DNA of 64,000 nt. Source: Eledone cirrhosa (taxonomy: Eukaryota). Both the position numbers and the translations under genes were made by a program. Shown here piece by piece: positions 6,855 through 46,576 of the stretch; the stretch's first letter is position 1, and each line of letters begins with the position of its first letter. The DNA lies in contig OZ024741.1 of NCBI GenBank assembly GCA_964016885.1, forward strand, positions 347,386,001 to 347,450,000. Reading direction: 5' to 3'. The notes below the pieces were generated by a model. The model searched no databases. It was not told where the DNA came from and saw only the letters and a program-made list of their open reading frames with translations.

Positions 6855-9800
6855 CGATAGCAACTAACAGCGCTGCGATCGAATGTGGCTTTTTAGCCCA
6901 GCCAATGATCTAAAATGTCTTGCACAGAGTCGGCAACCAAAACATTCACTGGGAATAGTCGGCTGTGGTTGGAGTTCGTGTACTTTTCCATGTCGTTTGA
7001 GCCCTCCTGCTGATTTACATTCTCTACCACATGTTTGGCAAGCATGATGGTGTAGCATCTCCAACAGCAGCCTGGTAGTCAACCACTGGTCTTACTTTAT
7101 GACTGAGAAGATGACTTTCGAGTCCAGCTTTGCTTAGGCAGAGTCTCGCACAGACGCTGCATGTCAGCACCATAGGAAGACCCTCGCCGTCTGGAAGTGC
7201 AACAGCAATGCCCTTCCTCACATCCCGCTTTACTTTCTCGTATGCGATTCGAGATGCCTCAAAGGCAATTTTTCCCTCATATACCGTCTTTCTCCATTTA
7301 TGACGATCAGCAGCAATATTTTCCCATGTATCAGCAGAGATGTTAGCGTCTTTCAGAGAGACCCTCAAGGAATCCTTATACCTCTTTTTTGGTTTATGTG
7401 GCGGTCGTTTTCCTTTAACCAACTCTCCATAAATGAGTTGTTTTGGTATTCTAGAATCCTTCATCCTGGCAAGGTGACCACTCCAACGGAGTCATTGCTT
7501 AAGCACAAGAGCTTCTATACTGTCACACATAGAGCTTTCCAAAATCTCGACATCACTGATGTGGACCCTCCAGTGAACGCAATGGATCCGTCTGAGACAC
7601 ATCTGATGGAAACGCTCCAATTGCTTAAGGTGGTGTCGATATGTGACCCAGGTCTCGCAGGCATAAAGAAGACAAGAGAGCACACATGCCCTGTACACCT
7701 TTACCTTTGTCCTCCTGCATATGTCTCGCCGACCCCAGAGTCGCCTTTCTACCTTTCCGAAAGCATCACTTGCTTTCCTAATTCTAGGTGAGATTTCACT
7801 GTCAAGGTTGCTGTATCGATTGACAGTGCTTCCCAGGTAGACAAACTGATCAACCACTCCAAGTCGTTTGCCATACACATAGATGTTTGGTTCAGTCTAC
7901 TGCTTACCAGGGGCAGGTTGGTACATGACGAGGTTTTTCTTGAGACTGACAGTCAATCCTAGGGCAGTGCAAGCGTCTGAAAATGCATTCAAAATGTGCT
8001 GCATATCACTCTCTGTGTGCGCTACAAGATCGCAATCATCTGCATAAAAGAGGTCTCTGATGATTGATGTAAATACTTTTGTCTTCGCAGCAAAGCGCCT
8101 GATGTTAAATATGCTGCCTGAGGTTCGATATCGGATGTAAACACCATGCTCGCAATTCCTGAATGCAATACAGAAAACCATGGCAAAGTATATGGCAAAC
8201 AGGGTCGATGCTGGAATATCCCCCTGTTTCACACCATTTTTTACTGAGATAGGCTCCGACATGTTACCTCCAACATTAACCCAAGCCTTCATGTAGTCAT
8301 GGAAAGACCTAACTAAAGCAAGGAACTTATCAGGGCAACCGAGTTTCTGGTGAACCTTCCATAATGCATCTCTGTTAACAGTATCGAAAGCTTTTGTCAG
8401 ATCGACAAAAACCTGATACAGATCCAAGCCTTGTTCCATGCACTTCTCCTGGAGCTGTCTAGCTGAGAAGATCATATCAGTAGTGCCGCGTCCAGCACGA
8501 AAACCAGATTGACTCTCAGGAAGAACACAATCTGCAATGTGTGTCAGCAGACGTCCAGAAGCACCCTACATGAAACTTTCCCTACGACAGAAAGCAATGA
8601 TATACCTCTGTAGTTCCCACAATCATTCCTGTTACCCTTCCCTTGTACAAGACCACCATTACTGCATCTCTCCAGTCCTCAGGTACGGATTCATTAGCCA
8701 ATACCCTTCCAAACAAAGAGTGAATATATTGCAGGAGTCTCTTACCACCATATTGTATGTGCTCAGCATGTATGCCATCCATACCTGGAGATCTTGCACT
8801 GTTCAGCTTCGAAATAGCCATTGCAGCCTCCACAAGCGTCGGAGGTACTGCGAGAACTACTTTCACAGGACTTTCTGGAATGAGATTGAGGAAATCTTCA
8901 CTGACGACAGACGGCTGATTCAAAAGATCATCAAAGTGCTCTCGCCACCTTCGTAGAATTCCTTGTGAATCACGAAGAAGTTCTTTGCCATCCTTGCTGC
9001 GAAGCGGTGTCACCAGAGAAGACGACGGTCCACAAACCTCACGCAAGAGACTGTACAACAGCTTTGTGTTATTGGAATCTGACGCAGTTTGTATCTCACC
9101 AGCCTTCTCACTCCACCACTGATCCTTCATCTGAGAAAGACTCCGCCTAACACGTGATTTTACATCCCTGAGTTCCTCATGCAACGTATTCCTCTCCTGT
9201 GGTTTTGCCGTCAAGTAGCGTGACAGAGAACGCCTCTTATCAGCCAACAAGTCTTCTATATGTACATCATTCTCATTAAACCAGTCCCGATGTTTTCTCT
9301 GCACCAATCCCAGAACACGCTTGCCTACATCATAAACCGACTTTTTAAGGGTCGGCTAATCCTCACCAAGATCTTCTTCAATGTCCTCTTCACATTTTTA
9401 TCCTTAAGACGAGCAGCATTCAATCGTTTGGGCAGGGCAACACCAGGAGCCCGGATTTTACGTTTAGTGGTTAGTTTCACTTTTGCGCGTACCAGGTGGC
9501 GGTCCGTACAGCACTCAGCTCCACGAAGAGCACGAACACACTGCACATCCTGTCTGTAACGCATCCTGACTAGAACGTAGTCCAAAAGATGCCATTCCTT
9601 AGATGCAGGATGCATCCATGTGGTCTTCAATTTGTTCTTTTGTTGGAACATGGTGTTGGTAACACACAGATCCAGCTCCTCACACATCTGCAGCAGGAGC
9701 ATACCATTGTTGTTACACTTTCACACCCTATGCCTTCCGATTACATTCCATGTGTTAAAATCCCTACACACTCTAGCATTAAAGTCACCAAGCACGATGA

Positions 9801-10460: not shown

Positions 10461-13400
10461 AAGAAGACGCACGAGGTGACGGAGGTCATGAAATCGCTCC
10501 CGTAAGTTTTGAATTTTTAACATATTTAAATCATTTGTGAAATAACAACTCTTAGTACAAATGCTACGTAAAGCACCCGGCGTGAGCCCAAAAAAATTCG
10601 GACCCCAAATATATTGTTATAAGGCTCAAATATTCAAATATTCAACTTTGTATTGTACACTGTATATCCAAAAAAGAAAATGGCTATAAATGGAAGAAGA
10701 ACCCCCCCCCCCCTCCTCCTCTGTCTACACTATATAGAACAGCCAAACTCACCAACACCAGAAACTAGATACACCACCCACCCCATCACCTGTGTACACT
10801 AAACCACCACTGCTCACTACGGCCATCATTACAACCATTATCCCATCACTGCCGCCACCACTCCTTCATTCCTTCACTGCTACCACCGCTACAGCACCAT
10901 CACTACAGTAATACGGTCACATCACCGCCACCACTGCCTCGGTATCGACATCACCACCACCACTGTCTCAGTATCGCTACCGCCGCCAGTCTCCCACTTC
11001 TTTTAGCTGGCTGCTGCCACCACATTATAGAATTCCTACTGCTAAAAAAGAGGAAGGCATCAAAATATATAGATAGACTCAAAAGAAAAAAGAAAAAACA
11101 AACAACAAAAACAAAGCAGCACAGCAACAACAGCAAAAAACGAGAAAAAAAAAAAAAAAAAAAAAAAAAAACCCAAAACGTAAAGAAAATAAGAATGAAG
11201 AGAGAAGCAGGCGGACGGACAGAGAAGAGGGGGGAAAAACTAAAACTTAAAAAACAAAAACTAAGTCAGACATTCGAACACTACATTACAATGAAACTTA
11301 TGCTTATTCATTTTTGGGGCCCTTTCTGCCTGTGTGTTTGTTTGTTTATGTGTGTTCGTATACAGCGTGGTGATAATGCCACACAAGGGCCAAGTGGAAT
11401 GGCGGATCCACAGATGGATATGTAACCATACATTCGCCAATCCTCGATAAGAGTGTTTAAATATCGAACATAAACAGTTCGAATAACGGTGAAATGGAGA
11501 CTAGAACGTCATGTGACAGACTCTCACCCAACAGGTGCCTCCTGGCTCAGCAGCAGGAACCTGACTGTCAACCAAATACTGCTGATGTTGGAGGAAGGAG
11601 AAGAAGGAAAGGGGCCAGAACCAACTGGACGAAAGAATTGAATAGAACTGTTATGCAATGTTACCTGAAAAGTAACCCCAAGGAGAGGGGCTACAGGAGA
11701 CGGATGCATAACATCTGGAACGAGATTGGTTTATTTAAATTAGATGAACAAAAATTGGCCGGGCAGGCTCGGGTAATAAGAACTAATGGATGGATAAGCG
11801 AGCTGGAACTGGAGGAACTGAGCAGAGAGAATGGCTTGGAGATGGCGGGTGTAGTATGCCAGACAAGCGAGCCAGTGGGAAATGAAGGTGAAGAGGTCCT
11901 GAGAACGGAGGAACCACCCGAAGCAGACAATGATCTGAATACTGAGATAAATAATACCTGGAACAGAGATACGGCCACTGAGGAGATGAATGCTGACGGG
12001 CTAGGACAAGATTCGGTTGACATTCTAAATTTAGTGGTAGATGAATTGAACAATGATAGTGGGAGACCTATGAACCTAAGATTTGTAGACAGGAAAAAGT
12101 TAAAAGAAACAACAGCTAAGGTAAACAAAGTCATCCCATACCTTGAGGCGAGGAGCCTTCACCAGTGCAACAATATCCTCAAAGCAACAGCAAATACGGT
12201 GAGGAAACTACTTGGTATAAAAGCGAGAGGAAACAACAGACAAGAAAGAGCAGAGCCGTGGTGGAAGAAGCGACTGAGTGGGCAAATCGGGGAAATGAGA
12301 AATGACATAGGAAAGCTTGAGTCACTACTGAATGGGACACTAAAAAACATAGGCACTAAAAATAGGCTGGAAATAAAATACAAAACTAGGAAGAAAAAGC
12401 TAAATATTATCATAGAGGAACTGAAGCAACGCATTGTAGCAAAGAGTGCAAAAATCAGGCGATACGAGAACAGAGTCAGTCAGTATAAACAGAACCGCAT
12501 GTTCGACAACAACCAGAAGATGCTGTTTGGACAGCTTGAGGGGAAAGAAAGAGGCAACGACTTGATCCCTGGGGCGGAGCAAACTAAAACATTCTGGAGA
12601 GGAATATGGGAGCAGGATGTTAGACACAATGCCCAGGCAGGGTGGATTGAGACAGTACAGAGGGAGATCGGTGAGCAGTCACAACAACAAACTGATTTGA
12701 GTATCACAGTTGAAACTCTTAAGGGGCAGGCCAAAAAACTAACCAACTGGAAATCACCAGGCCCAGATGGTGTGCAGGGGTATTGGATTAAACATTTAAC
12801 ATCCCTCCACCCGAAGCTGACGGCCATGTTCAATGACTGCTTGGTGTCGGGTGAGGTGCCAGAATGGTTGACAAAAGGTACCACAGTCTGATAATGAAAG
12901 ACCGAATCAAGGGTAATGATGTTACCAACTATAGACCTATCACATGTCTGTCCGTAATGTGGAAACTGTTGACGAGCATTGTGTCTGAGGAAATCTACCA
13001 TCACCTCCACACAAACAACTTGTTACCGGACGAACAGAAAGGATGCCGAAAGAAGTCACGTGGTACAAAGGACCAGTTACTTATTGATAAGATGGTAATG
13101 GGGAATTGCAGGAGGAGACACACTGATCTTGCCATGGGATGGATAGACTACAGAAAGGCATTTGACATGGTGCCTCATTCCTGGATCACCAAAAGCCTGG
13201 AGATCTTCAGGGTGGCAGATAACATCAGACAGTTGCTAGGCAGGAGTATGGGGTCCTGGGAGACAGAGTTGACATCAACTGGAGTATCCTTGGGAAGCGT
13301 GAAGATCAAGAGAGGTATCTTCCAGGGAGATAGCCTGTCCCCTCTGTTGTTTGTCCTTGCCCTGATGCCCTTGACCATTATGCTGCGAAAAGTGAGAGCA

Positions 13401-14960
13401 GGATACAAGTTGGGAAGGGGAGAGCTTACCATCAATCACCTCCTCTTCATGGACGATCTTAAGCTCTTCGGGAAAAGTGAGAAGGAGTTGGATGTGCTTG
13501 TTGACACTGTCCGTATTTTCAGCAGTGATATATGTATGCAGTTTGGTATTGGTAAATGTGGAGTCATTGTGATGAAGAGGGGTAGGTTGAGCAGAAGTAA
13601 CGGGATCCAGATACCAACAGGTGAGATGATAAAGGAAATTGACTCTGAGGAAGGATACAAGTATTTGGGCGTTCTGGAGGCTGATGGCATAAAGAACAAA
13701 AAAATGAAGGAATTGTTAAGAACTGAATACATTCGGAGAGTAAGGAGCGTATTGAAGTCACATCTGAACAGCAGAAATGCCATAAGCGCAGTAAATTCCC
13801 GAGCTGTGTCTATTATTAGGTACAGTGCGGGAATTCTGAGATGGAATGTTGCTGAACAAAAAGAAATGGATAGGAAGACTAGGAAGCTATTGACTATCTA
13901 CAACATGTTCCACAAGAGGAGTGATGTCGATAGACTCTACCTAAGGAGATCTGAGGGTGGAAGAGGTCTTATCAGCATAGAGGACTGTGTTCAGATGGAG
14001 AAAAACAACCTATACAAATACGTGACCTATAGTAAGGAGCCAATGCTCAGAACTGTACTGAAGGAGGGGACAGTAGGCCAGGGGATGTCCAAGGAGGAAA
14101 TAACATCAAGGAGGAAGAGCAGCCTTAAGGGAAAATCCCTTCATAGTACCTTCTTTGAGAAAACTGAATTTAGAGATCCACAGACATGGAACTGGTTGAG
14201 AAGAGGAGACCTCAAAAAGGCTACAGAAGGAATGCTAATGGCTGCGCAGGAGCAGGCCCTCAAAACGAAGTGGTTGAAGCACCATATCTACAAGGAGGAG
14301 GCTAGCCCACTGTGCAGGATCTGTGGAGAGAGAGAGGAGACTGTGGCTCACATTGTGTCCGAGTGTAAACACCTAGCCCAGACCCACTATAAGGGCTGGA
14401 GACACGATGTGATGGGCAGGGTGATCCACTGGCACCTGTGCAAAGTAAACAATTTACCACATTCTGAGAAATGGTATGAGCATAGGCCAGAGGCGGTGAT
14501 GGAGAACAATCAGGTGAAGGTGCTGTGGAATTTTAGGATACAGACGGACAAAAAACTGGAACACAATAGACCTGACCTGGTGGTTGTGGACAAAGAAAAA
14601 AGATCGTGTCTGATTGTGGATGTGGCCTGCCCGTTCGACACGAGAGTGCAAGAGAAGGAGAGGGAGAAAATTAACCGATACCAGGACCTAAAGTGGGAGG
14701 TGAAAAGGATTTGGAACTGCCATGAAGTCAAAGTGATCCCGATTGTCATAGGCGCACTGGGGACTATCTCCAAAAGTTTCCAGGGATGGTTAAAGAAAAT
14801 CGGCCCCTTCACGCTTTTTGGAAAGCTTCAAAAGGCATGCTTGCTTGGAACAGCAAGAACCCTCCGATACGTCCTGAATATCTGAGGCTGCAGGTAGTGG
14901 CTTGATATTCAATCCAACGGACTTTCCAGTTAACCAACATCAATGACTGAGATTCAAGGA
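10461..14960 (+). mobile_element. Full-length R4/Dong-type RLE LINE, family A, copy 1
   Basis: Flanked by (TAA)n on both sides; ~1 kb 5' UTR homologous to 35023-35835; single long ORF; short 3' UTR. Confidence 0.92.
11494..14885 (+). CDS. R4/Dong polyprotein (Myb-like N-terminus, RT, CCHC finger, restriction-like endonuclease); one 1-bp frameshift near 12888
   Basis: [75 protein letters not shown]. The third copy has acagttctg where this copy has acagtctg. Confidence 0.9.
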
Positions 14961-14989: not shown

Positions 14990-15791
14990 GAAAACTGAAT
15001 TTAGAGATCCACAGACATGGAACTGGTTGAGAAGAGGAGACCTCAACAAGGCTACAGAAGGAATGCTAATGGCTGCGCAGGAGCAGGCCCTCAAAACGAA
15101 GTGGTTGAAGCACCATATCTACAAGGAGGAGGCTAGCCCACTGTGCAGGATCTGTGGAGAGAGAGAGGAGATTGTGGCTCACATTGTGTCCGAGTGTAAA
15201 CACCTAGCCCAGACCCACTATAAGGGCTGGAGACACGATGTGATGGGCAGGGTGATCCACTGGCACCTGTGCAAAGTAAACAATTTACCACATTCTGAGA
15301 AATGGTATGAGCATAGGCCAGAGGCGGTGATGGAGAACAATCAGGTGAAGGTGCTGTAGAATTTTAGGATACAGACGGACAAAAAACTGGAACACAATAG
15401 ACCTGACCTGGTGGTTGTGGACAAAGAAAAAAGATCGTGCCTGATTGTGGATGTGGCCTGCCCGTTCGACACGAGAGTGCAAGAGAAGGAGAGGGAGAAA
15501 ATTAACCGATACCAGGACCTAAAGTGGGAGGTGAAAAGGATTTGGAACTGCCATGAAGTCAAAGTGATCCCGATTGTCATAGGCGCACTGGGGACTATCT
15601 CCAAAAGTTTCCAGGGATGGTTAAAGAAAATCGGCCCCTTCACGCTTTTTGGAACGCTTCAAAAGGCATGCTTGCTTGGAACAGCAAGAACCCTTCGATA
15701 CGTCCTGAATATCTGAGGCTGCAGGTAGTGGCTTGATATTCAATCCAACGGACTTTCCAGTTAACCAACATCAATGACTGAGATTCAAGGA
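14990..15791 (+). mobile_element. 5'-truncated Dong family A copy 2, head-to-tail with copy 1
   Basis: Nearly identical to 14159-14960; (TAA)n on both sides. Confidence 0.95.
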
Positions 15792-15829
15792 ATAACAACA
15801 ATAATAATAATAATAATAATAATAATAAT

Positions 15830-18326
15830 CAGAACCGCATGTTCGACAACAACCAGAACAGAACCGCATGTTCGACAACAACCAGAAGATGCTGTTTGGA
15901 CAGATTGAGGGGAAAGAAAGAGGCAACGACTTGATCCCTGAGGCGAACAAACTAAAACATTCTGGAGAGGAATATGGGAGCAGGATGTTAGACATAATGA
16001 CCAGGCAGGGTGGATTGAAACAGTACAGAGGGAGACGGTGAGCAGGCACACCACCAAACTGATTTGAGTATTACAGTTGAAACTCTTAAGGGGCAGGCCA
16101 AAAAACTAACCAACTGGAAATCACCAGGCCCAGATGGTGTGCAGGGGTATTGGATTAAACATTTAACATCCCTCCACCCGAAGCTGACGGCCATGTTCAA
16201 TGACTGCTTGGTGTCGTGTGAGGTGCCAGAGTGGTTGACAAAAGGTACCACAGTTCTGATAATGAAAGACCGAATCAAGGGTAATGATGTTGCCAACTAT
16301 AGACCTATCACATGTCTGTCCGTAATGTGGAAACTGTTGACGAGCATTGTGTCTGAGGAAATCTACCATCACTTCCACACAAACAACTTGTTACCGGACG
16401 AACAGAAAGGATGCCGAAAGAAGTCACGTGGTACAAAGGACCAGTTACTTATTGATAAGATGGTAATGGGGAATTGCAGGAGGAGACACACTGATCTTGC
16501 CATGGGATGGATAGACTACAGAAAGGCATTTGACATGGTGCCTCATTCTTGGATCACCAAAAGCCTGGAGATCTTCAAGGTGGCAGATAATATCAGACAG
16601 TTGCTGGGCAGGAGTATGAGGTCCTGGGAAACAGAGTAGACATCAACTGGAGAATCCTTGGGAAGCGTGAAGATCAAGAGAGGTATCTTCCAGGGAGATA
16701 GCCTGTCCCCTCTGTTGTTTGTCCTTGCCCTGATACCGCTGACCATTGTGCTGCGAAAAGTGAGAGCAGGATACAAGTTGGGAAAGAGAGAGCTTACCAT
16801 CAATCACCTCCTCTTCATGGACGATCTTAAGCTCTTCGGGAAGAGTGAGAAGGAGTTGGATGTGCTTGTTGACACTGTCCGTATTTTCAGCAGTGACATA
16901 TGTATGCAGTTTGGAATTAGTAAGTGTGGAGTCATTGTGATGAGGAGGGGTAGGTTGAGTAGAAGTAACGGAATCCAGATACCAACAGGTGAGATGATAA
17001 AGGAAATTGACTCTGAGGAAGGATACAAGTATTTGGGCGTTCTGGAGGCTGATGGCATAAAGAACAAAAAAATGAAGGGATTGTTAAGAACTGAATACAT
17101 TCGGAGAGTAAGGAGCGTATTGAAGTCACATCTGAACAGCAGAAATGCCATAAGTGCAGTGAATTCCCGAGCTGTGTATATTATTAGGTACAGTGCGGGA
17201 ATTCTGAGATGGAATGTTGCTGAACAAAAAGAAATGGATAGGAAGACTAGGAAGCTATTGACTATCTACAACATGTTCCACAAGAGGAGTGATGTCGATA
17301 GACTCTACCTAAGGAGATCTGAGGGTGCAAGAGGTCTTATCAGCATAGAGGACTGTGTTCAGATGGAGAAAAACAACCTACACAAATACGTGACTGATAG
17401 TAAGGACCAAATGCTCAGAACTGTACTGAAGGAAGGGACAATAGGCCAGGGGATGTCCAAGGAGGAAATAACATCAAGGAGAAAGAGCAGCCTTCAGGGA
17501 AAATCCTTTCATAGTACCTTCTTTGAGAAAACTGAATTTAGAGATCCACAGACATGGAACTGGTTGAGAAGAGGAGACCTCAAAAAGGCTACAGAAGGAA
17601 TGTTAATGGCTGCGCAGGAGCAGGCCCTCAAAACGAATTGGCTGAAACACCATATTTACAAGGAGGAGGCTAGCCCACTGTGCAGGATCTGTGGAGAGAG
17701 AGAGGATACTGTGGCTCACATTGTATCCGAGTGTAAACACCTCGCCCAGACCCACTATAAGGGCTGGAGACATGATGTGATGGGCAGGGTGATCCACTGG
17801 CACCTGTGCAAAGTAAACAATTTACCACATTCTGAGAAATGGTATGAGCATAAGCCAGAGGCGGTGATGGAGAACGATCATGTGAAGATGCTGTGGGATT
17901 TTAGGATACAGACGGACAAGAAACTGGAACACAATAGACCTGACTTGGTGGTTGTGGACAAAGAAAAAAGATCGTGTCTGATTGTGGATGTGGCCTGCCC
18001 ATTCGACACGAGAGTGCAAGAGAAGGAGAGGGAGAAAATTAACCGATACCAGGACTTATAGTGGGAGGTAAAAAGGATTTGGAACTGCCATGAAGTCAAA
18101 GTGATCCCGATTGTCATAGGCGCACTGGGGACTATCTCCAAAAGTTTCCAGGGATGGTTAAAGAAAATCGGCCCCTATACGCTTTTTGGAACGCTTCAAA
18201 AGGCATGCTTGCTGGGAACAGCAAGAACACTCCGATACGTCCTGAATATCTGAGGCTGCAGGTAGTGGCTTGATATTCATTCCAGCGGACTTTCCAGTTA
18301 ACTAACATCAATGACTGAGGTTAAAG

Positions 18327-18328
<2 letters not shown>
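15830..18328 (+). mobile_element. 5'-truncated Dong family A copy 3, followed by (TAA)n to 18391
   Basis: Colinear with 12490-14960; stops near 16639 and 18061; 29-bp duplicated 5' end. Confidence 0.95.
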
Positions 18329-18391
<63 letters not shown>

Positions 18392-20285: not shown

Positions 20286-20530
20286 CACTATTTAGGGTGT
20301 GTGTAAAATACTTATAACTGCATAAGGTTTTGTATTTACATAACCATAAATAGTATAACAAATACTATATATATATATATGTGTGTGTGTGTGTAAAAGG
20401 TAAACACAAATAATGACACAATCGGTACAGTATACCGAAGGGATATATTAGGTTAACGCTTGATATAGCAGGAAGAGCGTCTTAACTTTTCGGACGATAG
20501 TCCTTCATCAGAAGAATGAAGGAGAAAAAA
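20286..20530 (-). mobile_element. Solo 3' pLTR remnant of the Hydra-type PLE family seen at 55322-58572
   Basis: 20395-20525 matches 56008-56135; the hairpin at 20286-20354 matches 55322-55394. Confidence 0.75.
20478..20516 (-). ncRNA. Minimal type I hammerhead ribozyme
   Basis: tctt CTGATGA a ggac-tatc-gtcc GAAA ag TT aaga: stems I and II intact, stem III minimal. Confidence 0.72.
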
Positions 20531-20574
20531 AATATATATATCAGCCTTAATATCTGTATACAACAACTATAACG

Positions 20575-21362
20575 GTACGCGAAGGTGTCCACCACAGCGC
20601 CGGTGGACAGAATGGAGAAGGCGTTTCCCCGGAGTACGGCAAGGGAGGCGCGCTGGAAAAGCCACTCCAACTCGCGGGTCTCACACCTGTGGCTGGCCAG
20701 CTCAGCGCCTATGGTGGTGAGTAAGGAGGTAGCCTTGGGGCCGAGGACACCAGAAGTCTCCAGTGCCAGGGCTACGACCACAAATCTGTCGGAGAGCGAC
20801 CGGTATTTGAGGTGTTTGGCCCCCTCAGCCCGACGTGCAGCAGAACCTGGGTCAGTCGTAGACTGCACCAGGTTGCGGTTGCAGAAAGTGTCGGTGCAAG
20901 TGGCATCCCAGACGATGGGTTTGCCACCGCGGAACGGGAAGATGGTGATGCCATCTGGCCTTTTGCCGACCCCTCGATCCAGCCCCACCGGCTCGAGCTG
21001 GAAAGGGAAGCCTGTAGCGTCCAAGCCATGCTTAATGACCTCGTTGAGGGCAGCATGGCGTGGAAAGCGGCCGGCACTGTGGCGACAGGAACGCGGGTGG
21101 AGGCCGAAAGAGTCCACGGTGGAACAGTCGCGACATTGGTGTGGCTGGCAGATCCGGAGGCCGAGCCTCAGGGAAACGCCGATGCGCAGGCTATGGTCGT
21201 CCAGCTACGTGCCAGTGGATAAGGAGGGCAGGGCATGGAGCCAGGCACCATTGTTGGGTTTGGAGGCCGCACGAAAACAAGCAAGGTGGTTCTGGTCGAG
21301 CTGGCGCGTGAGCCTGTCTGAGGCCATGCTGCACTGGATGGCATCCCACGTGCGTTGGGGTG
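20575..21362 (-). pseudogene. 3' fragment of a CRE-clade RLE non-LTR retrotransposon
   Basis: GAWLHALPS, LRLGL, C..C..D.FG.H..SC, RH, EPVGL..GKRPDG..P...GKPIVWDATC, ETSG.LG, RGNA; much more GC-rich than its flanks. Confidence 0.82.
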
Positions 21363-21884
21363 ACTACGTTATATGACAGCTGCAGGAATGTAAGCAAAAA
21401 TATACCACCAACAAATCCATGAGTCTAACCATAATATGTAGCTCCTGCAGGGACAAATTGTGTAATGTGGAAATATAAAATTTTCTATTTAAGCTACGCA
21501 TCTCTAAAACCACTCTGGATATGAAGCCAAATCCCTTCAATCGGTTACCACAGCCCCACCGTCCATCTAAAACAAAAAACTTGAAAACTCCTTATTTCTT
21601 AGAATATAGAATCTCTATCAGCACGAATCTGATTCTCTGGCTACAAATATCATTAATCCACATGCACGTGAATTCCACCCCCTTCAAACATGAATAGTTT
21701 CTCGATTAACTTCATATGGATACTACATATTCTTAGATTGTATTGGCTGCCAAATTACATCCTTTAAATTTTGACCACCCAATATATCTAAATCATCTTT
21801 ACATTTATAATTATTACTCTCCTACAAAGAAAACATTTTTTTCCTAAATGACAACATTAATCTTGTATTAAATAATGGTAACGT

Positions 21885-22464: not shown

Positions 22465-25972
<3,508 letters not shown>

Positions 25973-31512: not shown

Positions 31513-31572
31513 AATAAACATAATGAAGGATTAGCAAATCCTCCCTGTATTATTATTATTATTATTATTATT

Positions 31573-34500
31573 CTTTGAGTCTCAGTCATTGATGTTAGTT
31601 AACTGGAAAGTTTGTTGAAATGAATATCAAGCCGCTACCTGCAACCTCAGGCATTCAGGACGTATCGGAGCATGCCTTTTGAAGTGTTCCAAAAAGCCGG
31701 GCGGGGCCAATTTTCTTTAACCATCCCTGGAAACTTTTTGAGCTAGTACCTAGTGCGCCTATGACAATCGGGACCACTTTGACTTCATGGCAGTTCCAAA
31801 TCCTTTTTACCTCCCACTTTAAATCCTGGTATCGGTTAATTTTCTCCCTCTCCTTCTCTTGCACTCTCGTGTCGAGTGGGCAGGCCACATCCACGATCAG
31901 TCACGATGTTTTTTCGTTGTCCCAAACCACCAGGTCAGGTCTATTGTGTTCCAGTTTCTTGTTTGTCTGTATCCTAAAATCCCATAGCACCTTCACCTGA
32001 TCGTTTTCTATCACCGACTCTAGCTTATGCTCATACCACTTCTAAGAATGTGGTAAATTGTTTACTTTGCATAGGTGCCAGTGGTTCACCCTGCCCATCA
32101 AATCATGTCTCCAGCCTATATAGTGAGTCTGGGCTAGGTGTTAACACTCGGATACAATGCGAGCCACAGTCTCCTCTCTCTCTCCACAGATGCTGCACAG
32201 TGGGCTAGCCTCTTCCATGTAAATATGGTGTTTCAGCCACTTCGTTTTGAGGGCCTGCTCTTGCGCAGCCATTAGCATTCCTTCTGTAGCCTTTTTAAGG
32301 TCTGCTCTTCTCAACCAGTTCCTTGTATGTGGATCTCTGAATTCCGTTTTCTCAAAGAAGGTACTATGAAGGGATTTTTCATGAAGGCTGCTCTTTCTCC
32401 TCGTTGTTATTTCCTCCTTGGACATCCCCTGGTTTATTGTCCTCTCCATCAGTACAATTCTGAACATTTGGTCCTTACTATCGTTCACGTATTTGTGTAG
32501 GTTGTTTTTCTCCATCTGAACACAGTCCTCTATGCTGATAAGACCTCTTCCACCTTCAGATCTCCTTAAGTAGAGTCTATCGACATCACTCCTCTTGTAG
32601 AACATGTTGTAGATAGTCAATAGCTTCCTAGTCTTCCTATCCATTTCTTTTTGTTCAGCAACATTCCATCTCAGAATTCCCGCACTGTACCTAATAATAT
32701 ACACAGCTCGGGAATTTACTGCACTTATGGCATTCCTACTGTTCATATGTGACTTTAATACGCTCCTTACTCTCCGAATGTATTCAGATCTTACCAATTC
32801 CTTCATTTTTTTGTTCTTGATGTCATCAGCCTCCGGAATACCCAAATACTCCAAATAATCCAAATACTTGTATCCTTCTTCAGTGTCAATTTCCTTTAAA
32901 AGCTCACCTGTTGGTACCTGGATTCCGTTGCTTCTGCTCCATTTAGCCCTCTTCATCACAAGGACTCCACACTTACTAATACCAAATTGCATACATATAT
33001 CATTGCTGAAAATACGGACAATGTCAACAAGCACATCCAACTCCTTCTCACTCTTCACGAAGAGCTTAAGATCGTCCATGAAGAGGAGGTGATTGATGGA
33101 AAGCTCTCCCTTTCTCAACTTGTATCCTGCTCTCACTTTTCGCAATATAACGGTCAGGGGTATCAGGGCAAGGACAAACAGCAGAGCAGACAAACTACCT
33201 CCCTGGAAGATACCTCTCTTGATATTCACGCCTCCCAAGGATTCTCCACTTGATGCTAACTCTGTTTCCCAGGACTTCATACTTTTGCTCAACAACTGTC
33301 TGGTGTTATCTGCCACCTTGAAGATCTCTAGGCTTTTGGTTATCCAAGAATGCCTTTTTGTAGTCTATCCATCCCATGGCAAGACCAGTGTGTCTCCTCT
33401 TGCAATTCCTCATTACCATCCTATCAATAAGTAACTGGTCTTTTGTACCACGGGACTTCTTTCGGCATCCTTTCTGTTCGTCCAGTAACAAGTTGTTTGT
33501 GTGGAAGTGATGGTAGATTTCCTCAGACATAATGCCTGTCAACAGTTTCCCCATTACGGACAGACATGTGATAGGTCTATAGTTGGTAACATCATTACCC
33601 TTGATTCGGTCTTTCATTACCAGAATTGTGTTACCTTTTGTCAACCACCCTGGTACCTCAACTGACATCAAGCAGTCATTGAACATTCTTGTCAGTCTCG
33701 GGTGGAGGGATGTTACATTTTTATTTCAATACGCCTGCACACCATCTGGGCCCGGTGATTTCCAGTTGGTTAGTTTTTTGGCTTGCCCCTTAAGAGTTTC
33801 AACTGTGATACTCAAATCAGTTTGTTGGTGTGCCTGTTCACTAATCTCCCTTTGTACTGTCTCAATCCACACTGCCTGGTCATTATTTTTACCATCCTGC
33901 TCCCATATTCCTCTCCAGAATGCCTTAATTTGTTCCGCCTCAGGGATCAAGTCATTGCCTCTGTCTTTCCCTTCAAGCTGTCCAAACAACATCTTCTGCT
34001 TGTTGTCAAACAAGCGGTTCTGTCTATACTGACTGACTCTTCTCTCGTATCGCCTAATTTTTGCACTCTTTGCTACAATGCCTTGCTTCAGTTCATCTAT
34101 GATAATATTTAGCTTTTACCTCCTAGTTTTGTACTTAATTTCCAGTCTATTTTTAGTGTCTATGTTTTTTAGTGTCCCATTCAGTAGGGACTCAAGCTTT
34201 CCAATGTCATTTCTCATTTCCCTGATTTGACCATTCATTCGTTTCTTCCACCAAGGTTCTGATCTTTCTTGTTTGTTGTTTACTCTCGCTTTTATACCAA
34301 GTAATTTCCTCACCGCATTTGCTGTTACTTTGAGGATATTGTTGCACTGGTGAAGGCTCCTCGTCTCAAGGTATGGGATGATTTGTTTACCTTAGCTGTT
34401 GTTTCTTTTAACTTTTTCCTGTCTACAAATCTTAGGTTCATTGTTCATTTCATCTACCACTAAGTTTAGGATATCAACCAAATCTTGTCCTAGCCCGGCA

Positions 34501-35835
34501 GCATTCATCTCCTCAATAGCCGTATCTTTGTTCCAGGTATTATTTATTTCAGCATTCAGATGGTTCGGATGGTTCTTCTGTTCTCTCAACCACTTCACCT
34601 TCATTTCCCACTGGCTCGTTTGCCTGGCATACTCCACCCTCCATTTCTAACCTAATCTCTCTGCTCAGTTCCTCAAGTTCCAGCTCGCTTATTCACACAG
34701 TAGTTCTTATTACCCTAGCCTGCCCGGCCAATTTTTGTTCATCTAATTTAAATAGACCAATCTCGTTCCAGATGTTATGCATCCGTTTCCTATAGCCTTT
34801 TTCGTTGGGGTTACTCTTCAGGTAACATTGCATAACAGTTCTATTCAATTCTTTCGTCCAGTTGGTTCTAGTCCCTTTCCTTCTTCTTCCTCCGACACCA
34901 GCAGTATTTGGTTGACAGCCACGTCCCTGCTGCTGAGCCAGGGAGCACCTGCTGAGTGAGAGTCTGTCACATGACATTGCAGTCTCCACTTCACCGTTAT
35001 TCGAACTGTTTAGATTCGACATTGAAACACTCTTATCGATGATCGGTGAATGTATGGTTACATAACCACCGGTGATTTGATCACCCTCGGTGATTTTAGC
35101 GTGGCACTATCACACTGTAGACGAACATAAATATACAAACAAACATATAGGTAAAAAAAAACAAAAATAAGCATACATTTCATTGTAATGTAATGTTTGT
35201 ATGTCTGACTTAGTTATTTTGCTTGTCTGTCTGTATGTTTGTTTTTCTTTTCTTTTTCCTTTTCTTTTCGTTTTTCGTTGCTGCTGTGCTGTTTTGATTT
35301 TGCTTTTTGATTTTTTGATTTTTGACCGGGTCATCAAATAAGTCTACTTATATCTTTTGATGCCATCCTAATTTATTGGGAATACTACGACGCCTGTCTT
35401 AGCAGGAGGTAGTGGGAGGGAATAGCGGTGGTAGCGATAATGAGGCAGTGGTGGTGGTGATGTGATCGTAGTACTGTAGTGATGGTGTTGAAGTTGAAGT
35501 AGAAATAGAAGTTGAGGTAACTTGACTAGAGTTTTTGGCGTGTTAGTGGCGATGGTGGCGGTGGTGGTTTTGGTGGTGAAATTATTTGCCTGTCTGTCCA
35601 CTTAGCCATTTTTCTCTTTTTCGACTATAACATTTCTGATCCAAAATTAAATATTAAGATTTGGGGCCATATGCCGTAATGTGATACGTTGTGGCTTGCT
35701 GAGGGTCAAAACTGTAATCTTATATTTCATTTGTAATAAGAATTATTCTATCACATTTATTTTAAATAAGTAAAAATCAAAAACTTACGGGAGCGATTCC
35801 ATAACGATATATAGCCACCATGTGCGTTTTCTTCC
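31573..35835 (-). mobile_element. Full-length but decayed Dong family A copy 4
   Basis: Colinear with 10461-14960 including the 5' UTR; ATG at 35022; many stops and indels; TAA tracts at both ends. Confidence 0.93.
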
Positions 35836-35861
35836 CTTTATTATTATTATTATTATTATTA

Positions 35862-38964: not shown

Positions 38965-39149
38965 GGCGGTGGATTGGCAGTATCGGTAGAGGGTCGGACG
39001 CCATACTTTCCAGCATAGTTACGTCCCTTTACGATCTGAGATCAAATCCCGCCGAGGTTGACTTTGCCTTTCATCCTTACGGGGTCGATAAAATAAAGTA
39101 CCAGTAATGCACTGGGTAATTGCTGGCCTTGTGCCTAAAGTAGAAACAA
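38965..39149 (+). mobile_element. tRNA-derived SINE family 1, full length, in a TTA tract
   Basis: ggcggtggattggcagtatcggtagag head, B box, core; followed by (TTA)n. Confidence 0.92.
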
Positions 39150-40665: not shown

Positions 40666-40873
40666 GGCGACCTACGTAGTACATCGTATCATCTTGAGCT
40701 CCGCAAAGGTTTGTTATTTCCGTTTGTTAAAAATTTCCATTTATGGAAAATGTTATTGTTAACTGTTTATAAGCACACATACATTGTTTTCCGAAAAGGA
40801 CACCAAAAAAGATTGGGGCCTTGTGCCCAAAATTTTAACTTTTATTATTATCCAAAAATTTCTTTGAAAAAAA

Positions 40874-43060
40874 ATGGCTAATTCCCCTCTGCACGAAGCA
40901 GCTGAAAGCCTTCCTCACAAAATAACACCTCACACCGACACCACCATTGTAAATGTTACTACGTTTGCCAACACAAAAAAAAATATAAGCAGTAGCAATA
41001 TTTTAAATTTGTCTCAGGCAGACATTCATTTCCCGCCATTACCAATGACTGCAGGTGTTAAAGCCTCCACCACCACCACCACCGCGACAACCACCACCCC
41101 CACCACCACCGCGACAACAGAAACAAAAGAAGAAAAAAATAAATTAACTCGTGATGTCGAAATGAAATCAAGCAAAATGGACTCTTCCGCACCAAAGACG
41201 ACTGACGTCACCACCACCAAAACTGAAAATAAAATTAATATTAACGATAGCAACAACAACAACAATGACATTATAAAACCGACCCTCAGTTTCGCCATCG
41301 TAGCAAAACAATTCGAAGCGTTCACGGTAACTCAAGAAGATTTAGAAAATGCCAAACAAATGGTAAAGAAAGATGGGTACAGGGTCAGCCTCACCCCCCC
41401 ACCTAATAAAATGGAGCATCGGCGCCTGTGCACCGTGTCGTATAGAACAATAAATGTAAAATCGCGCCGAGTGGAACGGGCATCCGAGTCCCAAATCCAA
41501 AAAGCTTTGGGACATGTGTGGGCAAGAAAAACCCACATCAGACGTGGGCAAAAGTATGGAACCGTGGATGTGTTCTTTGAAACACCAGAGGAGGCTAGAG
41601 AACACTCCATGGCCCCATTAAAAAGTGACGACCTCACACTCGTCCCAAGCTATTGTGGCCAGAGACTCGTAAAGATCAGGGTGACCCACGTTCCACCGGC
41701 GATCGAAATTCCCTGTCTAATAGCGGCTGTCCTCACCGGCATCGAAGCCAACACGAAAATAATAGCAGTAGCAAAAGAAAAGCAGGAAAACTGGTCCGGA
41801 TCTGGGATGGAGCTCCTGATCCAAGCGGACCAAAAAAGCATTGAGGAGATCCCAGAGGTAATAGACCTCACTGACGGCAGCCACCTCACGGTAATTGTCG
41901 AGGGCAGAAGACCTAGTTGTGTCGTTTGTGGTGAAGGAACCCACCTAAGGGCTTTCTGCCCTCAGGCTAAAAGGCTGAGGCCACCTCTCCTACCCACCCC
42001 AGTGACACAACCATCAACACCACCAGTAGCAGAGATGGCAGCAACAACTGTAGCAGCAACAACAGAAGCAACTATAACAGCAACAACCCCAGCAACAGTA
42101 GCAAAACCAACACCACTACCACCACCAGCAAAACCAACACCACCACCACCCAACGCTTCAGAACTAGCACCAGCGCCTACACCATCCACCAGACCACAAC
42201 CAAAACTAACGGCTGTGGAGGATTTTCCACTCCCCGGCCTATCACAACTGGAGACAGATTGTGACGACGAGGAGTGGGAAACGATATCCGGAAAAAAAAA
42301 GAAACCAAAGAAGAAAAAATTATCTTCCTTCCCCCTCCAAAAACAAAATACAGAGGGAAACAAATAAACTAAGAAACAAAAAAGTTAGGACAGATATGCC
42401 ACCATCCACACCAGCATCACCAACCCCATCAACCCAAACACCAACACCATCACCATCATTATCCCCAGCACCACCATCACCTACACCACAAAAGTCACCA
42501 AAATTCGAAACAGAAACAAACCCACAACAAACGCAAACAAAACAAAACAACCAAAACGATACACACTACACAGCATTAAATTTGAACAACAAGGGCGGTG
42601 GATTGGTAGTATCGGTAGAGGGTCGGACGCCATGCTTTCTAGCATAGTTACGTCCCTTTACGATCTGAGTTCAAATCCCGCCGAGGTTGACTTTGCCTTT
42701 CATCCTTACGGGGTCGATAAAATAAAGTACCAGTGAGGCACTGGGTAGTTGCTGGCCTTGTGCCTAAAGTAGAAACAATTAAATTTGAACAACAAGCAAT
42801 TATTACACTACATCCAACACAACACCAGCATCACAGAAAAAGACTACACAACAACCCCAAAATTCACACCACCTCCACACATACAAATCACTCGCATCAC
42901 ACAGAAAACGTACATGACACTAAAACAAAAATTCCCCAAAGACATCGGAGACTTCCGACAAGCACTCTCCAGGAGGATTTATAAGGACATCCTTCCTGAG
43001 GAGGCCACAAGCAGTGAAAAGGATGGAAAAGCCGTCCTTCCCCTACGAGAAGTAAGGTAA
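40874..43060 (+). CDS. Tx1 ORF1 (gag-like, CCHC knuckle), interrupted by a +1 frameshift in an A9 run (42292-42300) and a SINE
   Basis: CVVCGEGTHLRAFC (CX2CX4HX4C); Pro/Thr-rich tail; frame 42261 rejoins frame 42785 when the SINE and one TSD are removed. Confidence 0.8.
42594..42777 (+). mobile_element. SINE family 1 inserted in Tx1 ORF1 with a 19-bp TSD
   Basis: attaaatttgaacaacaag at 42575-42593 and 42778-42796. Confidence 0.95.
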
Positions 43061-43094
43061 GTGGTCTTTCCCATCTTTTCCACTCCTTTTCAAC

Positions 43095-46000
43095 ATGACC
43101 TCACTCAGAATAGGCAGCGTAAATGCGCGTGGCTTGGGGTCGTCATGGAAGCAGGGCCACCTGCTCAACGACCTCAGGTCACTAAACATAGATGTAGTGG
43201 CCATCAGCGAGACAAGAATCTCCGAAGCACAGGCTTTCGCACCGATCTTCGGCGGCTACGATGTGTACGCATCTCCCAGCCGTCCGGGATCGGGGGGAGG
43301 ATTTGCTGTGCTTTTTCGGAGAGGTTTGGACCTTGCCATACGGGCCATCTTCCTGGACCCAGAAGGTAAGTTGGTGGTGCTGGACGTGACCAGCGGAGAC
43401 GGGCAAGCTTTCAGGTTAGTGGGCGTCTATGCCCCGACAGGAGCAGGGCGGCCTGATTTCTTCCGGCGTCTGGAGACCTTTCTTGGAACGTCCCGCTCTT
43501 TAGTGTTAGTGGGCGACTGGAACGGGATCTTAGATGCACGCTGGGATTGTGTGGGATTAGTGGATAGGGAAGGAGGGTGCAAGAGTCTCACCAACCTGCT
43601 CAGACGTTTTGAACTGTCTGACAGGTACCGAATGGATTTCCCGAATGTACCAATGTGGACTTGGACAAATCGCATAGGGTCATCCAGATCATATCTAGAT
43701 AGAGTATTTTGTAGGGAAATAGATAGGTCTAGCATAGGCTGTCCACAATTCAAGACAGTCAGCTACACGGACCACAAATTCGTGATCTGTGTGCTTGACT
43801 TAGATAGGCTTCATAGACGAGGACCCGGCTACTGGAAGCTAAACGCGTCTTTACCAGCGCGCAAGGCCTACAGAGACCGGATTAGCGAACTAGTTAAGCG
43901 GGCGTTGACGGGGGCCATTGTCAACAACAAGTGGTGGTTTGCTCTGAAAAGAGCAATTAGAATAGAGTCCATTAGGTTTAGTAAGACTTTAGCAATAGAG
44001 AAAAATAGAGCAGAGGGAGAATTAGTTAGAAAATTAGATGAGGCGCTTAGCAAAGGCATCGCGACCGACGTACTTGCGGCGAAATTGGCCCTTGACCAAT
44101 TCTTCAATGCAAAGCACGAAGGCTGCGTTGTCAGAGCTAGGGTGCGTGCTCTCAGACACGAGGGGACGAAAGCCGTTCAATGGGCCCGAGTGGCGGAGGC
44201 GCGTCGTGGCAACAAAGCCACGATCCGGTCTTTGGTGGACCACGACGGGCGCATGCTACTCGATCCCGGGCAAATGTGTGAAGCTTTTCAGCGACACTTC
44301 GCTCAACTGTTCGGGGGCAGTGGCGGGCCGGATCGAGGGATGGACTTTAGTGTCTACCTCGACGGACTGCCGCGGCTTTCGGCCACTGAGGCGGAGTGTT
44401 GCGAAAAGCCGATAACAACCGCTGAAGTACGGGATGCAATGACTAGTTGCACAAGGGGCAAATCGCCTGGTTTGGATGGTCTGCCCTATGAACTTTACGT
44501 ACAAATGCCAAACTTGTTCGGAGGCCTCTTGGCGGACGTCTACTGCAACTGGCAACAGAACGGGAGAATTCCCAGCTCTGTGAGCCGAGGAGCGGTGGCG
44601 CTGCTGAGAAAGGATCCGAACAAGGGGGATAACATAGATAATTTTAGGCCCATAACTCTGCTAAACACAGAGTTCAAGATTTTGGCCAAGGTGCTAGCAA
44701 AGAGGTTGGCGCTTGTCGTTGGCGGTCTGGTGAGAGAGGCACAGACATGCGCCATTCCCGACAGATCCATCCACGACAACCTCCACCTCATGCGATACAT
44801 CGTAGAGAGGGTAGCTAGGGAACCTGGCACGGGTGGGTCTTTGATCAATTTAGATCAGTCGAAAGCCTTCGATAGGGTCGACCATCGTTACGTAGCGGCA
44901 GTCCTGAGGGCGGCTGGCTTTGGGCCCGTCTTCAGAGGCTGGATCGCTGCCATGCACAGCGACATCTGCTCTGTAGTGAGAGTGAACGGTCACCTTTCGG
45001 AACCGTTCAACATCATGCGCTCGGTCCGCCAAGATGTCCCCTCTCGTCCCTATTGTACGTATTGACTCTCGAGCCATTACTGCACAAACTGGAGACGTTG
45101 AGGGGGGTCCCGCGCGAACTAGGATGCGGAAGATCCGTGTCAGCATATGCCGACGATGTCACCGTAGTGGTGTCGAGCGCCAAACACATCGAGGCGATCG
45201 GCACTACACTAAGAGAATACGAAGCGGTGACAGGAGCAATGATCAACCAGGAAAAGTCAGTGGGCCTGCAGCTCGGCACCTGGAGAGGCAGGTCCATGCC
45301 GTCCAACAGCGTCGTCGGGCGCTGGACGGACGGACCGGTTAAATTGCTAGGGGTCTGGTTCGGTCCAGACCTCCAGACGGACAAATACTGGGACGAGGTG
45401 ACGAGCAGGGTGGCTTCTCTCACCCAGAAATGGGCCGAGAGGAAGCTATCACTGAAAGGTCGAGCGGAGGTGGCGAATGCGTACATCGCATCCGTCATCT
45501 ACTACCGCCTGACCGTCGTACCTTGTCCTAAGCCCCGCCTGACTGCGCTGGAGCGTTTGCTCTTTCGCTTCTTGTGGAAGGGACGCGCTCCGATGGTCAG
45601 GCGGTCCATCTGCTGTCAACACCCGCTACGTGGAGGGCTGGGCGTGCCGTGGCTGATGATGCGCAGACACGCGCTCAGGCTACGACATCTCCACCTCTTC
45701 CTCGACGGTGATCAGGTGTGGTCGCCGTTTGCAAGACACGTTTTTCCCCAGCTCGTCTCCTTGACGGAGCTGCAGTCCTGGGTCAAGCGAAGACCGAGAG
45801 GGAGCGCTTGGAGACTGGAATGTCTTCAGGCTCTCACAGCCCTCGACCAATCGGGCAATGTGATCGGTGGAAACTCCACCTTGGCGTTCTATAGGGGATT
45901 AGTGGAGGGGAAGAGCGACGACGTACTTGGAGAAACTCTAGGCGTCGACGAAAATCAACTAGCCAATCTCTTCGGAAGGACTTTCGGGCCGGGGCCTATG

Positions 46001-46576
46001 GACAACTTCCAGAAATCCCTGGCCTGGCAGTGCTACCGAGGAGCTTTGCCAGTTCGGGATAAACTCTACAGGCATGGAGGTGCCGTCAGCCGGGCATGTC
46101 CGAGATGCGCGCAGGGCGACGAAACCGTCCTGCACGCACTCGTCCAGTGTCCCAGCATTGCTGACTTGTGGGTTTATGTCGAACACCTGCTGTCACGTGT
46201 AGGACGGATCCAGCTATCAGCTGAGTCCATCGTGAGGATTGCCCCGCCCCCTTCCTTTAGCCTGGAAGGGCAGGCAGTTTTTATCTGTCTGGTGGCCATG
46301 GCGAAAGAGATAGTATGGTGGACACGTTTGAAAGGGCTGAAGACGAGCACTTACCTCTTCGGTGATGCCCTGATTAACTTTTTCAAATTTCATTTGAAAA
46401 GGAAAATCAGGGTAGAGAGGGAAGTGCTCTCTTCCCAGCATTTTGTTGAAAGATGGGTGAGAGAAGCAAGTATGGCCCGAATGAATGAGCCTTCTCTGAG
46501 TATGTGTCGTAAATTAAAGGTGGAAAACTGGGAGAGGGCACTTGCCCTGGTGGTCAGGGCCACTGTGGTCTTTTAA
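43095..46576 (+). CDS. Tx1 ORF2: APE endonuclease, RT, C-terminal CCHC; single 1-bp deletion near 45035
   Basis: SVNARGL, SETR, GDWN, YLDR, TDH, SPGLDG, FRPITLLN, DQSKAFD, VRQ(G)CPLS, YADD, LGVWF, CPRC..ETVLHALVQC. Confidence 0.92.

Follow-up and report, generated by a model that had tools for sequence, protein, structure and literature searches.

A 5' Splice Donor, Rarely Used, Shared by R4/Dong-like and L1/Tx1-like Retrotransposons of Eledone cirrhosa, and Its Likely Origin in a Captured 5' Module

R4/Dong-like Elements in the Window

The window analyzed here, a stretch of 64,000 nucleotides from the genome of Eledone cirrhosa, contains two copies of a non-LTR retrotransposon referred to below as family A. 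Copy 1 (10461–14960, plus strand) is full-length, contains a reverse transcriptase (RT) domain and is flanked by (TAA)n runs; copy 2 (31548–35837, minus strand) belongs to an older subfamily. A single open reading frame (ORF) occupies 11494–14885 of the plus strand in copy 1, with a frameshift near 12880, and the family A frame of 1141 codons is intact in many other genomic copies. The first in-frame ATG of copy 1 is at 11494, and position 11461 corresponds to an ATG in copy 2 and reads ATA in copy 1. Pfam searches detected RVT_1 in this ORF, found no APE domain in it, and at its N-terminus detected no SANT/Myb-like domain, which was sought by Pfam only. The C-terminus, as read directly from the translation, contains CRIC...HIVSEC and RPD...D motifs, which we take to be a CCHC knuckle and a restriction-like endonuclease motif, and the closest solved structures to the protein are those of R2 proteins (E 3e-30). 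TAA runs border the element at both ends, and (TAA)n is the target named for the R4/Dong clade, with which family A also shares the single RT ORF and the C-terminal CCHC and restriction-like endonuclease motifs (PMC7998251). Placed by motifs, TAA target and nearest solved relatives rather than by a tree, family A fits an R4/Dong-like element, and the clade assignment of the preliminary description is upheld.

Two 5'-truncated family A copies (14990–15829 and 15857–18384, plus strand) stand head-to-tail behind copy 1 with TAA runs between them. Such arrays, of family A and of a second R4/Dong family termed family B, occur throughout the genome because each tail serves as the next target. The window also contains an L1/Tx1-like LINE (40668–46576, plus strand), recognized by translation and motif comparison, with a CCHC-bearing ORF1, an ORF2 with APE and RT, and a diverged 5' motif (GCTCCGCAAAG then GTTTGT, near 40696); the clade name Tx1 is presumptive. 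Other retroelement fragments were recognized by eye in translations at 255–1954, 23253–24601 and 57139–57984 (minus strand), at 7024–9355 (minus strand) and at 20482–21376, and comprise Penelope-like RT/GIY-YIG pieces, an RTE-like LINE and another restriction-endonuclease-type element. In a metagenome scan, none of 40 loci matched upstream of residue 253, so that none shows a 5' untranslated region (UTR). From another species, one contig of sequencing run X6 (organism C) spans the opening two bins of the segment compared, where the donor described below is located.

Organization of the 5' Untranslated Region

In copy 1 a leader (10461–10501, plus strand) precedes a consensus splice donor, reading ATCGCTCCC then GTAAGT with its G at 10502, and a TACAG ends at 11365, so that 864 nt lie between donor and AG. 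In copy 2, on the minus strand, the corresponding G is at 35788 and the AG ends at 35115, giving 674 nt. These boundaries, which the preliminary description had taken for the ends of a spliceosomal intron, were recovered exactly in both copies, and the distance from donor to AG ranges from 672 to 1304 nt among family A copies. The same description depicted conserved ends around a variable middle. Both ends do align and the middle is gapped and of low complexity, but in this alignment of two copies the internal blocks at ~10895–10935 and ~11260–11310 are as well conserved as the ends.

The low-complexity middle (10701–11255, plus strand) is delimited by the two-copy alignment and by the spread of family A lengths. 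SINE-like insertions have entered it at internal TAA runs in the older lineages, and an internal TAA run 250–570 nt in is present in 10 of 17 R4/Dong copies examined. The block at 11260–11310 (plus strand) is a possible branch region or cis element: 25 of its 55 columns hold a shared variant, versus 105 of 113 just upstream. A T-rich tract with TACAG follows (11336–11365, plus strand), which is acceptor-like by sequence and, in the junction searches reported below, was never seen joined to the donor. The most conserved stretch before the first ATG is 11426–11493 (plus strand), with 7 of 68 columns variable and no significant fold. Between 11366 and 11425 and in homologous segments, all length changes are multiples of three (103, 106, 121 and 124 nt to a fixed anchor); they arise from a GTG duplication and 18-nt palindromic repeats, show no conserved frame and may be due to chance.

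Each UTR contains 11–18 upstream ATGs. That of the leader, at 10488 in copy 1, would be out of the ORF frame if the leader were joined to 11366, and such a mismatch is found in 19 of 20 family A copies. A conserved upstream ORF or N-terminal extension created by splicing was accordingly rejected, the twentieth copy (L031) being without that ATG (another was scored). An argument from premature polyadenylation proved weak, AATAAA occurring only 0–2 times per UTR.

Structured RNA was sought as well. An Rfam ribozyme search of the 5' region gave sub-threshold chance hits only, and a descriptor for HDV-like ribozymes, run without a positive control, found none. The folding of the sequence 3' of the acceptor does not exceed that of shuffled sequence (z -1.49), and the alignment fold showed two-sided change in 1 of 23 pairs. 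In family B, the region ~180–60 nt upstream of the ORF (for example L034, L045 and L059) likely forms an RNA pseudoknot. Among 23 distinct segments, most pair AGAACGA with TCGTTCT, about seven carry the two-sided change AGGAC/GTCC, two have a G-U intermediate and none has a mismatch. The order of its helices resembles that of HDV-like ribozymes, which include a P4 helix and a catalytic linker; both of these seem to be missing, and there is no Rfam hit.

Census and Conservation of the Donor

The motif TCGCTCCC then GTAAGT (10494–10507, plus strand; GT at 10502) recurs on a genomic scale. A 15-mer across the donor has 2,062 matches in the 3.0 Gb genome, versus 2 for a control. The first 30 matches lead into family A (20) or family B (8), two being unresolved, and the 20 of 28 resolved loci, a non-random sample, give an estimate of ~1,470 family A copies; the donor count and the junction searches alike register exact motif matches only. 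By chance, GTAAGT would be expected 0.17 times in the copy 1 UTR, and only 0.01 times if the first 60 nt alone are considered; therefore its position there is unlikely to be fortuitous. The motif keeps a fixed placement 30–50 nt from the 5' end, and its conservation takes in the eight bases 5' of the GT (TCGCTCCC), which are a poor exon-end consensus. Family B, with 48% RT identity to family A, agrees with it in the leader, in the donor and over several hundred bases beyond, but is devoid of the family A acceptor block.

Spliced Copies in the Genome

The GT at 10502 is a functional spliceosomal donor, because spliced and re-inserted copies exist. Six junction rows represent five events, in each of which a segment is lost from the first base of GTAAGT, so that spliced RNA can evidently be re-inserted. 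The loss ends at an AG in four of the five, twice at an internal AG and twice at that of an antisense SINE-like insert. Two family B copies, L177 and L178, resume right after the AG homologous to the cryptic AG at 10675–10676 (plus strand) of copy 1, without microhomology; they belong to different family B subfamilies (100/97 branch) and thus represent independent events. Family A contributes a single spliced copy, L187, whose sequence picks up directly behind the AG of an antisense SINE-like insert. Its unspliced relatives L273 and L280 have TAG at this site, and several other relatives have TTG or TTA. The family B copy L181 resumes at the same SINE position, where the AG is presumed; its parent was not found. 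An AG stands at this acceptor position in 36 of 63 SINE contexts (duplicates included), and the window itself contains, by sequence match, an example of the type used elsewhere in the genome by L181 and L187 (TTTCTACTTTAG then GCACAAGG, 39127–39146, minus strand). The fifth event, L175/L176, resumes 5 nt before the internal AG, on AA, and is unexplained.

Breakpoints near the donor were compared over positions -6 to +5. This control yielded 12 rows. The break falls at the donor in 4 of them and one base before it in 2, where there is microhomology to the end of a different element; the remaining 6 comprise unrelated sequences, mutated ones and exon-2 repeats. L177, L178 and L181 extend to the family 3' end and TAA tail; L187 matches unspliced relatives, its 3' end not having been located. 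Target-site duplications are masked at the spliced copies, the insertions lying in simple TAA runs. Five events against 2,062 donor matches correspond to a spliced-copy rate of ~0.24%. The earlier proposal that unspliced RNA is the template normally copied is supported.

Two arrangements deserve a separate record. At L175 (G000:C2:146869955-146875273) one and the same spliced family B 5' end flanks an intact full-length family A copy on both sides, an arrangement suggestive of a duplication of ~280 nt on insertion at an internal TAA run. At L261 (G000:C4:195326576-195326690) a family B copy is preceded by three repeats of the leader, two of which adjoin the 3' end of a different element at a point of microhomology.

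The Proposed Junction and the Regulated-Intron Reading

The preliminary description went further and read 10502–11365 as an intron removed to give the translated mRNA. In its developed form, this reading holds that spliced RNA is translated and only unspliced RNA is copied, because integration would depend on a cis element located within the final ~250 nt of the intron. Several features speak for it. A canonical and functional donor, a T-rich tract and a YAG are all present and are similar to those of five host introns; the acceptor, which resembles the five host ones, persists throughout the young subfamilies of family A, in a survey that left out L210–L239 (chosen for mutated AG) and L061–L100. 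Splicing would also remove 7–15 ATGs from family A copies, and the 3' part of the segment, with the block at 11260–11310, is retained in L187.

A search for intron-less copies gave a different picture. No genomic copy joins 10501 to 11366, although other spliced RNAs were re-inserted at cryptic acceptors. The direct junction-pattern search of the genome returned 0 matches. Among 63 rows in which a base other than G follows the leader, 43 had mutated donors, 16 were unrelated and 4 were junctions; among 29 rows in which the leader is followed by G and then a non-T, 18 were mutated, 9 unrelated and 2 junctions. None reached the proposed acceptor. In the reverse direction, 40 rows of acceptor-side sequence without the preceding G included 0 joined to the leader. 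With ~1,470 family A copies, the rule of three sets a ceiling of ~0.2% for 10501–11366 copies; spliced RNA, if common, would be expected among re-inserted copies. Three candidates were rejected on inspection: the L250 match lies inside tandem repeats after the acceptor, the L024 'donor' is a SINE match, and L229, whose first base is the one that follows the AG, proved to be truncated at its 5' end and preceded by TAA repeats.

Nor is the AG at 11365 better conserved than its neighbors. In 120 of 126 family A segments (6 were dropped), shared variants occupy 4 of the last 12 'intron' columns, 7 of 18 columns upstream and 8 of 20 downstream, against the 7 of 68 at 11426–11493, low divergence limiting the power of the comparison. 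The acceptor is absent from family B and from the older family A copy L377 (~75% protein identity), which has CCCCAAAA in its place. Moreover, hypothetical splicing would still leave 1–4 upstream ATGs 3' of the acceptor.

RNA evidence comes from sequencing run X4. No run is recorded as RNA, and X4 was classed as such by our own test on the host CCT gene, because one of its contigs joins CCT exons at CT..AC ends; by the same test, run X1 is DNA. Unspliced X4 contigs run across the donor (10461–10635, depth 156) and across the acceptor (11290–11644, depth 145), the former extending 29 letters outside the segment used for this comparison. Unspliced RNA thus exists, and these contigs may be read-through from host transcripts. 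No 10501–11366 joint is among the 15 of 18 joints listed for X4, a single RNA run whose contigs can neither prove absence nor exclude a minor spliced form. It is possible that a minor or tissue-specific spliced mRNA occurs and is barred from retrotransposition. How translation proceeds past 11–18 upstream ATGs is otherwise unexplained and is the best remaining argument for a regulated intron; taking all this together, we regard that reading as unlikely.

A 5' Module Shared with L1/Tx1-like LINEs

The donor motif is common to three LINE families, namely the R4/Dong families A and B and L1/Tx1-like elements. The motif search gave 139 matches outside a family A or B context, mostly L1/Tx1-like. 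All nine of the motif-bearing elements fetched have ORF1 and APE-RT ORF2 homology to 40868–46576 of the window element, so that they too are L1/Tx1-like. Their insertion sites are (ATT)n runs, which correspond to the R4/Dong target read on the opposite strand. Most of the cross-family sequences were found through the motif itself, which inflates its apparent conservation; free of this bias are only L278 (an unrelated element starting ~32 nt before TCGCTCCC then GTAAGT), L228, the set from the search with the upstream part of the motif alone, and the sets fetched for the hexamer count. The upstream-part search gave 440 matches, and the 100 listed nearly all read CCCA then GTAAGT.

Several observations touch on the distribution of this motif. 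L371 and L373 carry motif and module before sequences in which no family A, B or L1/Tx1-like ORF was detected, and are possibly further families or decayed copies. Some L1/Tx1-like elements (L304, L320, L334 and others) have a conserved T-rich tract ending in GTAAG before a G, 55–60 nt after the donor, which could close a mini-intron of ~58 nt; no spliced copy of it was seen among the 100 listed of the 440 matches. A sequence close to the LINE 5' motif, TCGACCCCGTAAGG, also occurs in an abundant SINE-like repeat (39075–39088 and 42704–42717, minus strand), and one SINE variant has TCGCTCCCGTAAGG (L378).

It might be supposed that the motif is a DNA element, a transcription-factor or core-promoter site of a captured promoter, and that its donor activity is accidental. 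The conservation of the eight poorly exon-like bases before the GT, the fixed distance from the 5' end and the rarity of splicing all agree with this, and human L1 offers a precedent in a donor lying inside a RUNX3 site (PMC5860796). The largest L1/Tx1-like group, however, has an extra base between TCGCTCCC and GTAAGT, and the hexamer is still perfect (in 25 of 30 L1/Tx1-like elements fetched, despite the 1-nt insertion), which fits two separate signals. Tolerance of this insertion favors a separate U1 signal over one DNA site. GTAAGT is not universal in L1/Tx1-like elements, since the window element has a diverged motif without the hexamer, yet that element is still donor-like there, with AG followed by GTTTGT. 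We find an accidental donor unlikely, but given the L1 precedent it is a rival to be taken seriously.

Resemblance extends beyond the motif. Over ~170 nt after it, the alignment to the L1/Tx1-like 5' UTR is weak but colinear, and it ends at the ORF1 ATG. A profile of 52 L1/Tx1-like 5' UTRs, with the motif excluded, was matched by 35 of 52 R4/Dong segments at scores beyond the 99th percentile of shuffles, and 33 of the 35 lay on the diagonal; of the 5,200 shuffles in the control, 50 exceeded the cut-off and 4 of these were on the diagonal. Scores are low (13.1 bits at best, 10.6 for copy 2 and only 2.0 for copy 1), the copies are related rather than independent, and young family B copies fall below the cut-off. 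By this profile match, 10508–10700 (plus strand) of copy 1 is colinear with the 5' UTR of L1/Tx1-like LINEs and likely represents a captured promoter module. The ATG at 10680–10682 (plus strand), at the position of the L1/Tx1-like ORF1 start, is likely a relic, as it opens only 12–44 codons in R4/Dong copies.

Low profile scores, and AT-rich flanks that align easily, would also suit a motif of convergent origin, or one acquired through short-patch exchange, with no complete 5' module having been captured. Against this stand the on-diagonal placement of 33 of 35 scoring segments, compared with 4 of 50 scoring shuffles, and the fact that the match stops at the L1/Tx1 ATG position; we consider such an origin very improbable.

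Proposed Origin and Role of the Segment

The explanation that we favor, and hold to be somewhat probable, is that the segment is a likely promoter-bearing 5' module, likely captured from an L1/Tx1-like LINE, with a working donor that is almost never spliced, and not a regulated intron. The segment plausibly holds promoter sequence, and we infer that capture ran from L1/Tx1-like to R4/Dong. The first step would have been insertion of an R4/Dong element into an L1/Tx1-like one, at a TAA run near the 5' end of the latter, by its TAA-rich ORF1 start. If the R4/Dong protein then reverse-transcribed a transcript initiated at the internal promoter of the L1/Tx1-like element, the foreign 5' end would have become fixed. 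The captured ORF1 start would subsequently have decayed into the low-complexity middle, and the module may have passed between families A and B. The donor may be retained through U1 snRNP binding 30–50 nt from the cap, which would shield the nascent RNA from early termination. Protein would be made from unspliced RNA, and occasional splicing to the nearest usable AG would yield dead-end copies resembling the SpIREs of L1.

A bolder version of this explanation, which we put forward as tentative, is that a restriction-endonuclease-type LINE swapped its ribozyme-made 5' end for the Pol II promoter of an APE-type LINE directed at the same microsatellite, and that the module then reached a second R4/Dong family. 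The orphan U1 site would disguise the RNA as an intron-containing mRNA and so evade early termination, making the module a portable anti-surveillance cassette between LINE clades.

Comparison with Known Systems

Penelope-like elements retain introns that are truly spliced, and are alike in that genomic retroelement copies keep splice signals; they differ in enzyme class, and the intron proposed here shows no splicing. The evolution of L1 subfamilies includes replacement of the 5' UTR, and here too a LINE lineage gains a new 5' end; the source in the present case is apparently another active LINE clade, however, and two R4/Dong families share the result.

U1 telescripting assigns a comparable role to a donor near the start of a transcript. 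In mouse cells, a 5' splice site blocks attenuation by Restrictor without splicing (PMC12211998). The promoter-proximal 5' splice sites that protect from Restrictor/ZC3H4 resemble the present donor in being strong, near the start and independent of splicing, but they were studied in mouse-cell reporters, not retrotransposons, and protection of this kind in the present elements is hypothetical.

SpIREs make up 131 of 6,609 full-length human L1 copies, ~2%, and use several acceptors (Larson et al. 2018, PMC5860796). As in the family A and B elements, a conserved donor lies near the LINE 5' end, and a few spliced copies have been re-inserted; the L1 donor is maintained by a function apart from splicing, as is probable here. 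The present elements differ in clade and enzyme, in the lower rate (~0.24%), in acceptors that are an internal AG and inserted SINE-like repeats, and in a donor that is shared between clades.

Dong of B. mori and the nematode R4 of Ascaris begin with a self-cleaving HDV-like ribozyme (PMC3774820). Family A differs from them in having a UTR of ~1 kb, the front of which is common to an L1/Tx1-like LINE. In TART, introns are described only in antisense RNA (PMC1636488), and, as far as consulted, neither that article nor PMC9341512 bears on sense 5' UTR introns. A literature search, with most subscription journals and repeat-database notes outside its coverage, found no report of SpIRE-type splicing or 5' replacement in R4/Dong.

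Significance

SpIRE-type leaky splicing and replacement of the 5' end are each of a known kind; what is new is the R4/Dong setting and, apparently, the transfer across clades. The spliced copies extend the SpIRE type beyond L1. Should the intron reading be true instead, it would represent a rare division between mRNA and template in a LINE. The elements bear on two open questions, namely how the intronless RNA of retrotransposons escapes the surveillance that ends intronless, donor-less transcripts early, and how non-LTR retrotransposons switch between ribozyme-made and promoter-made 5' ends. For both, they offer a natural test set in which one donor motif is found in three LINE families with two enzyme types, in thousands of copies and together with fossil spliced copies.
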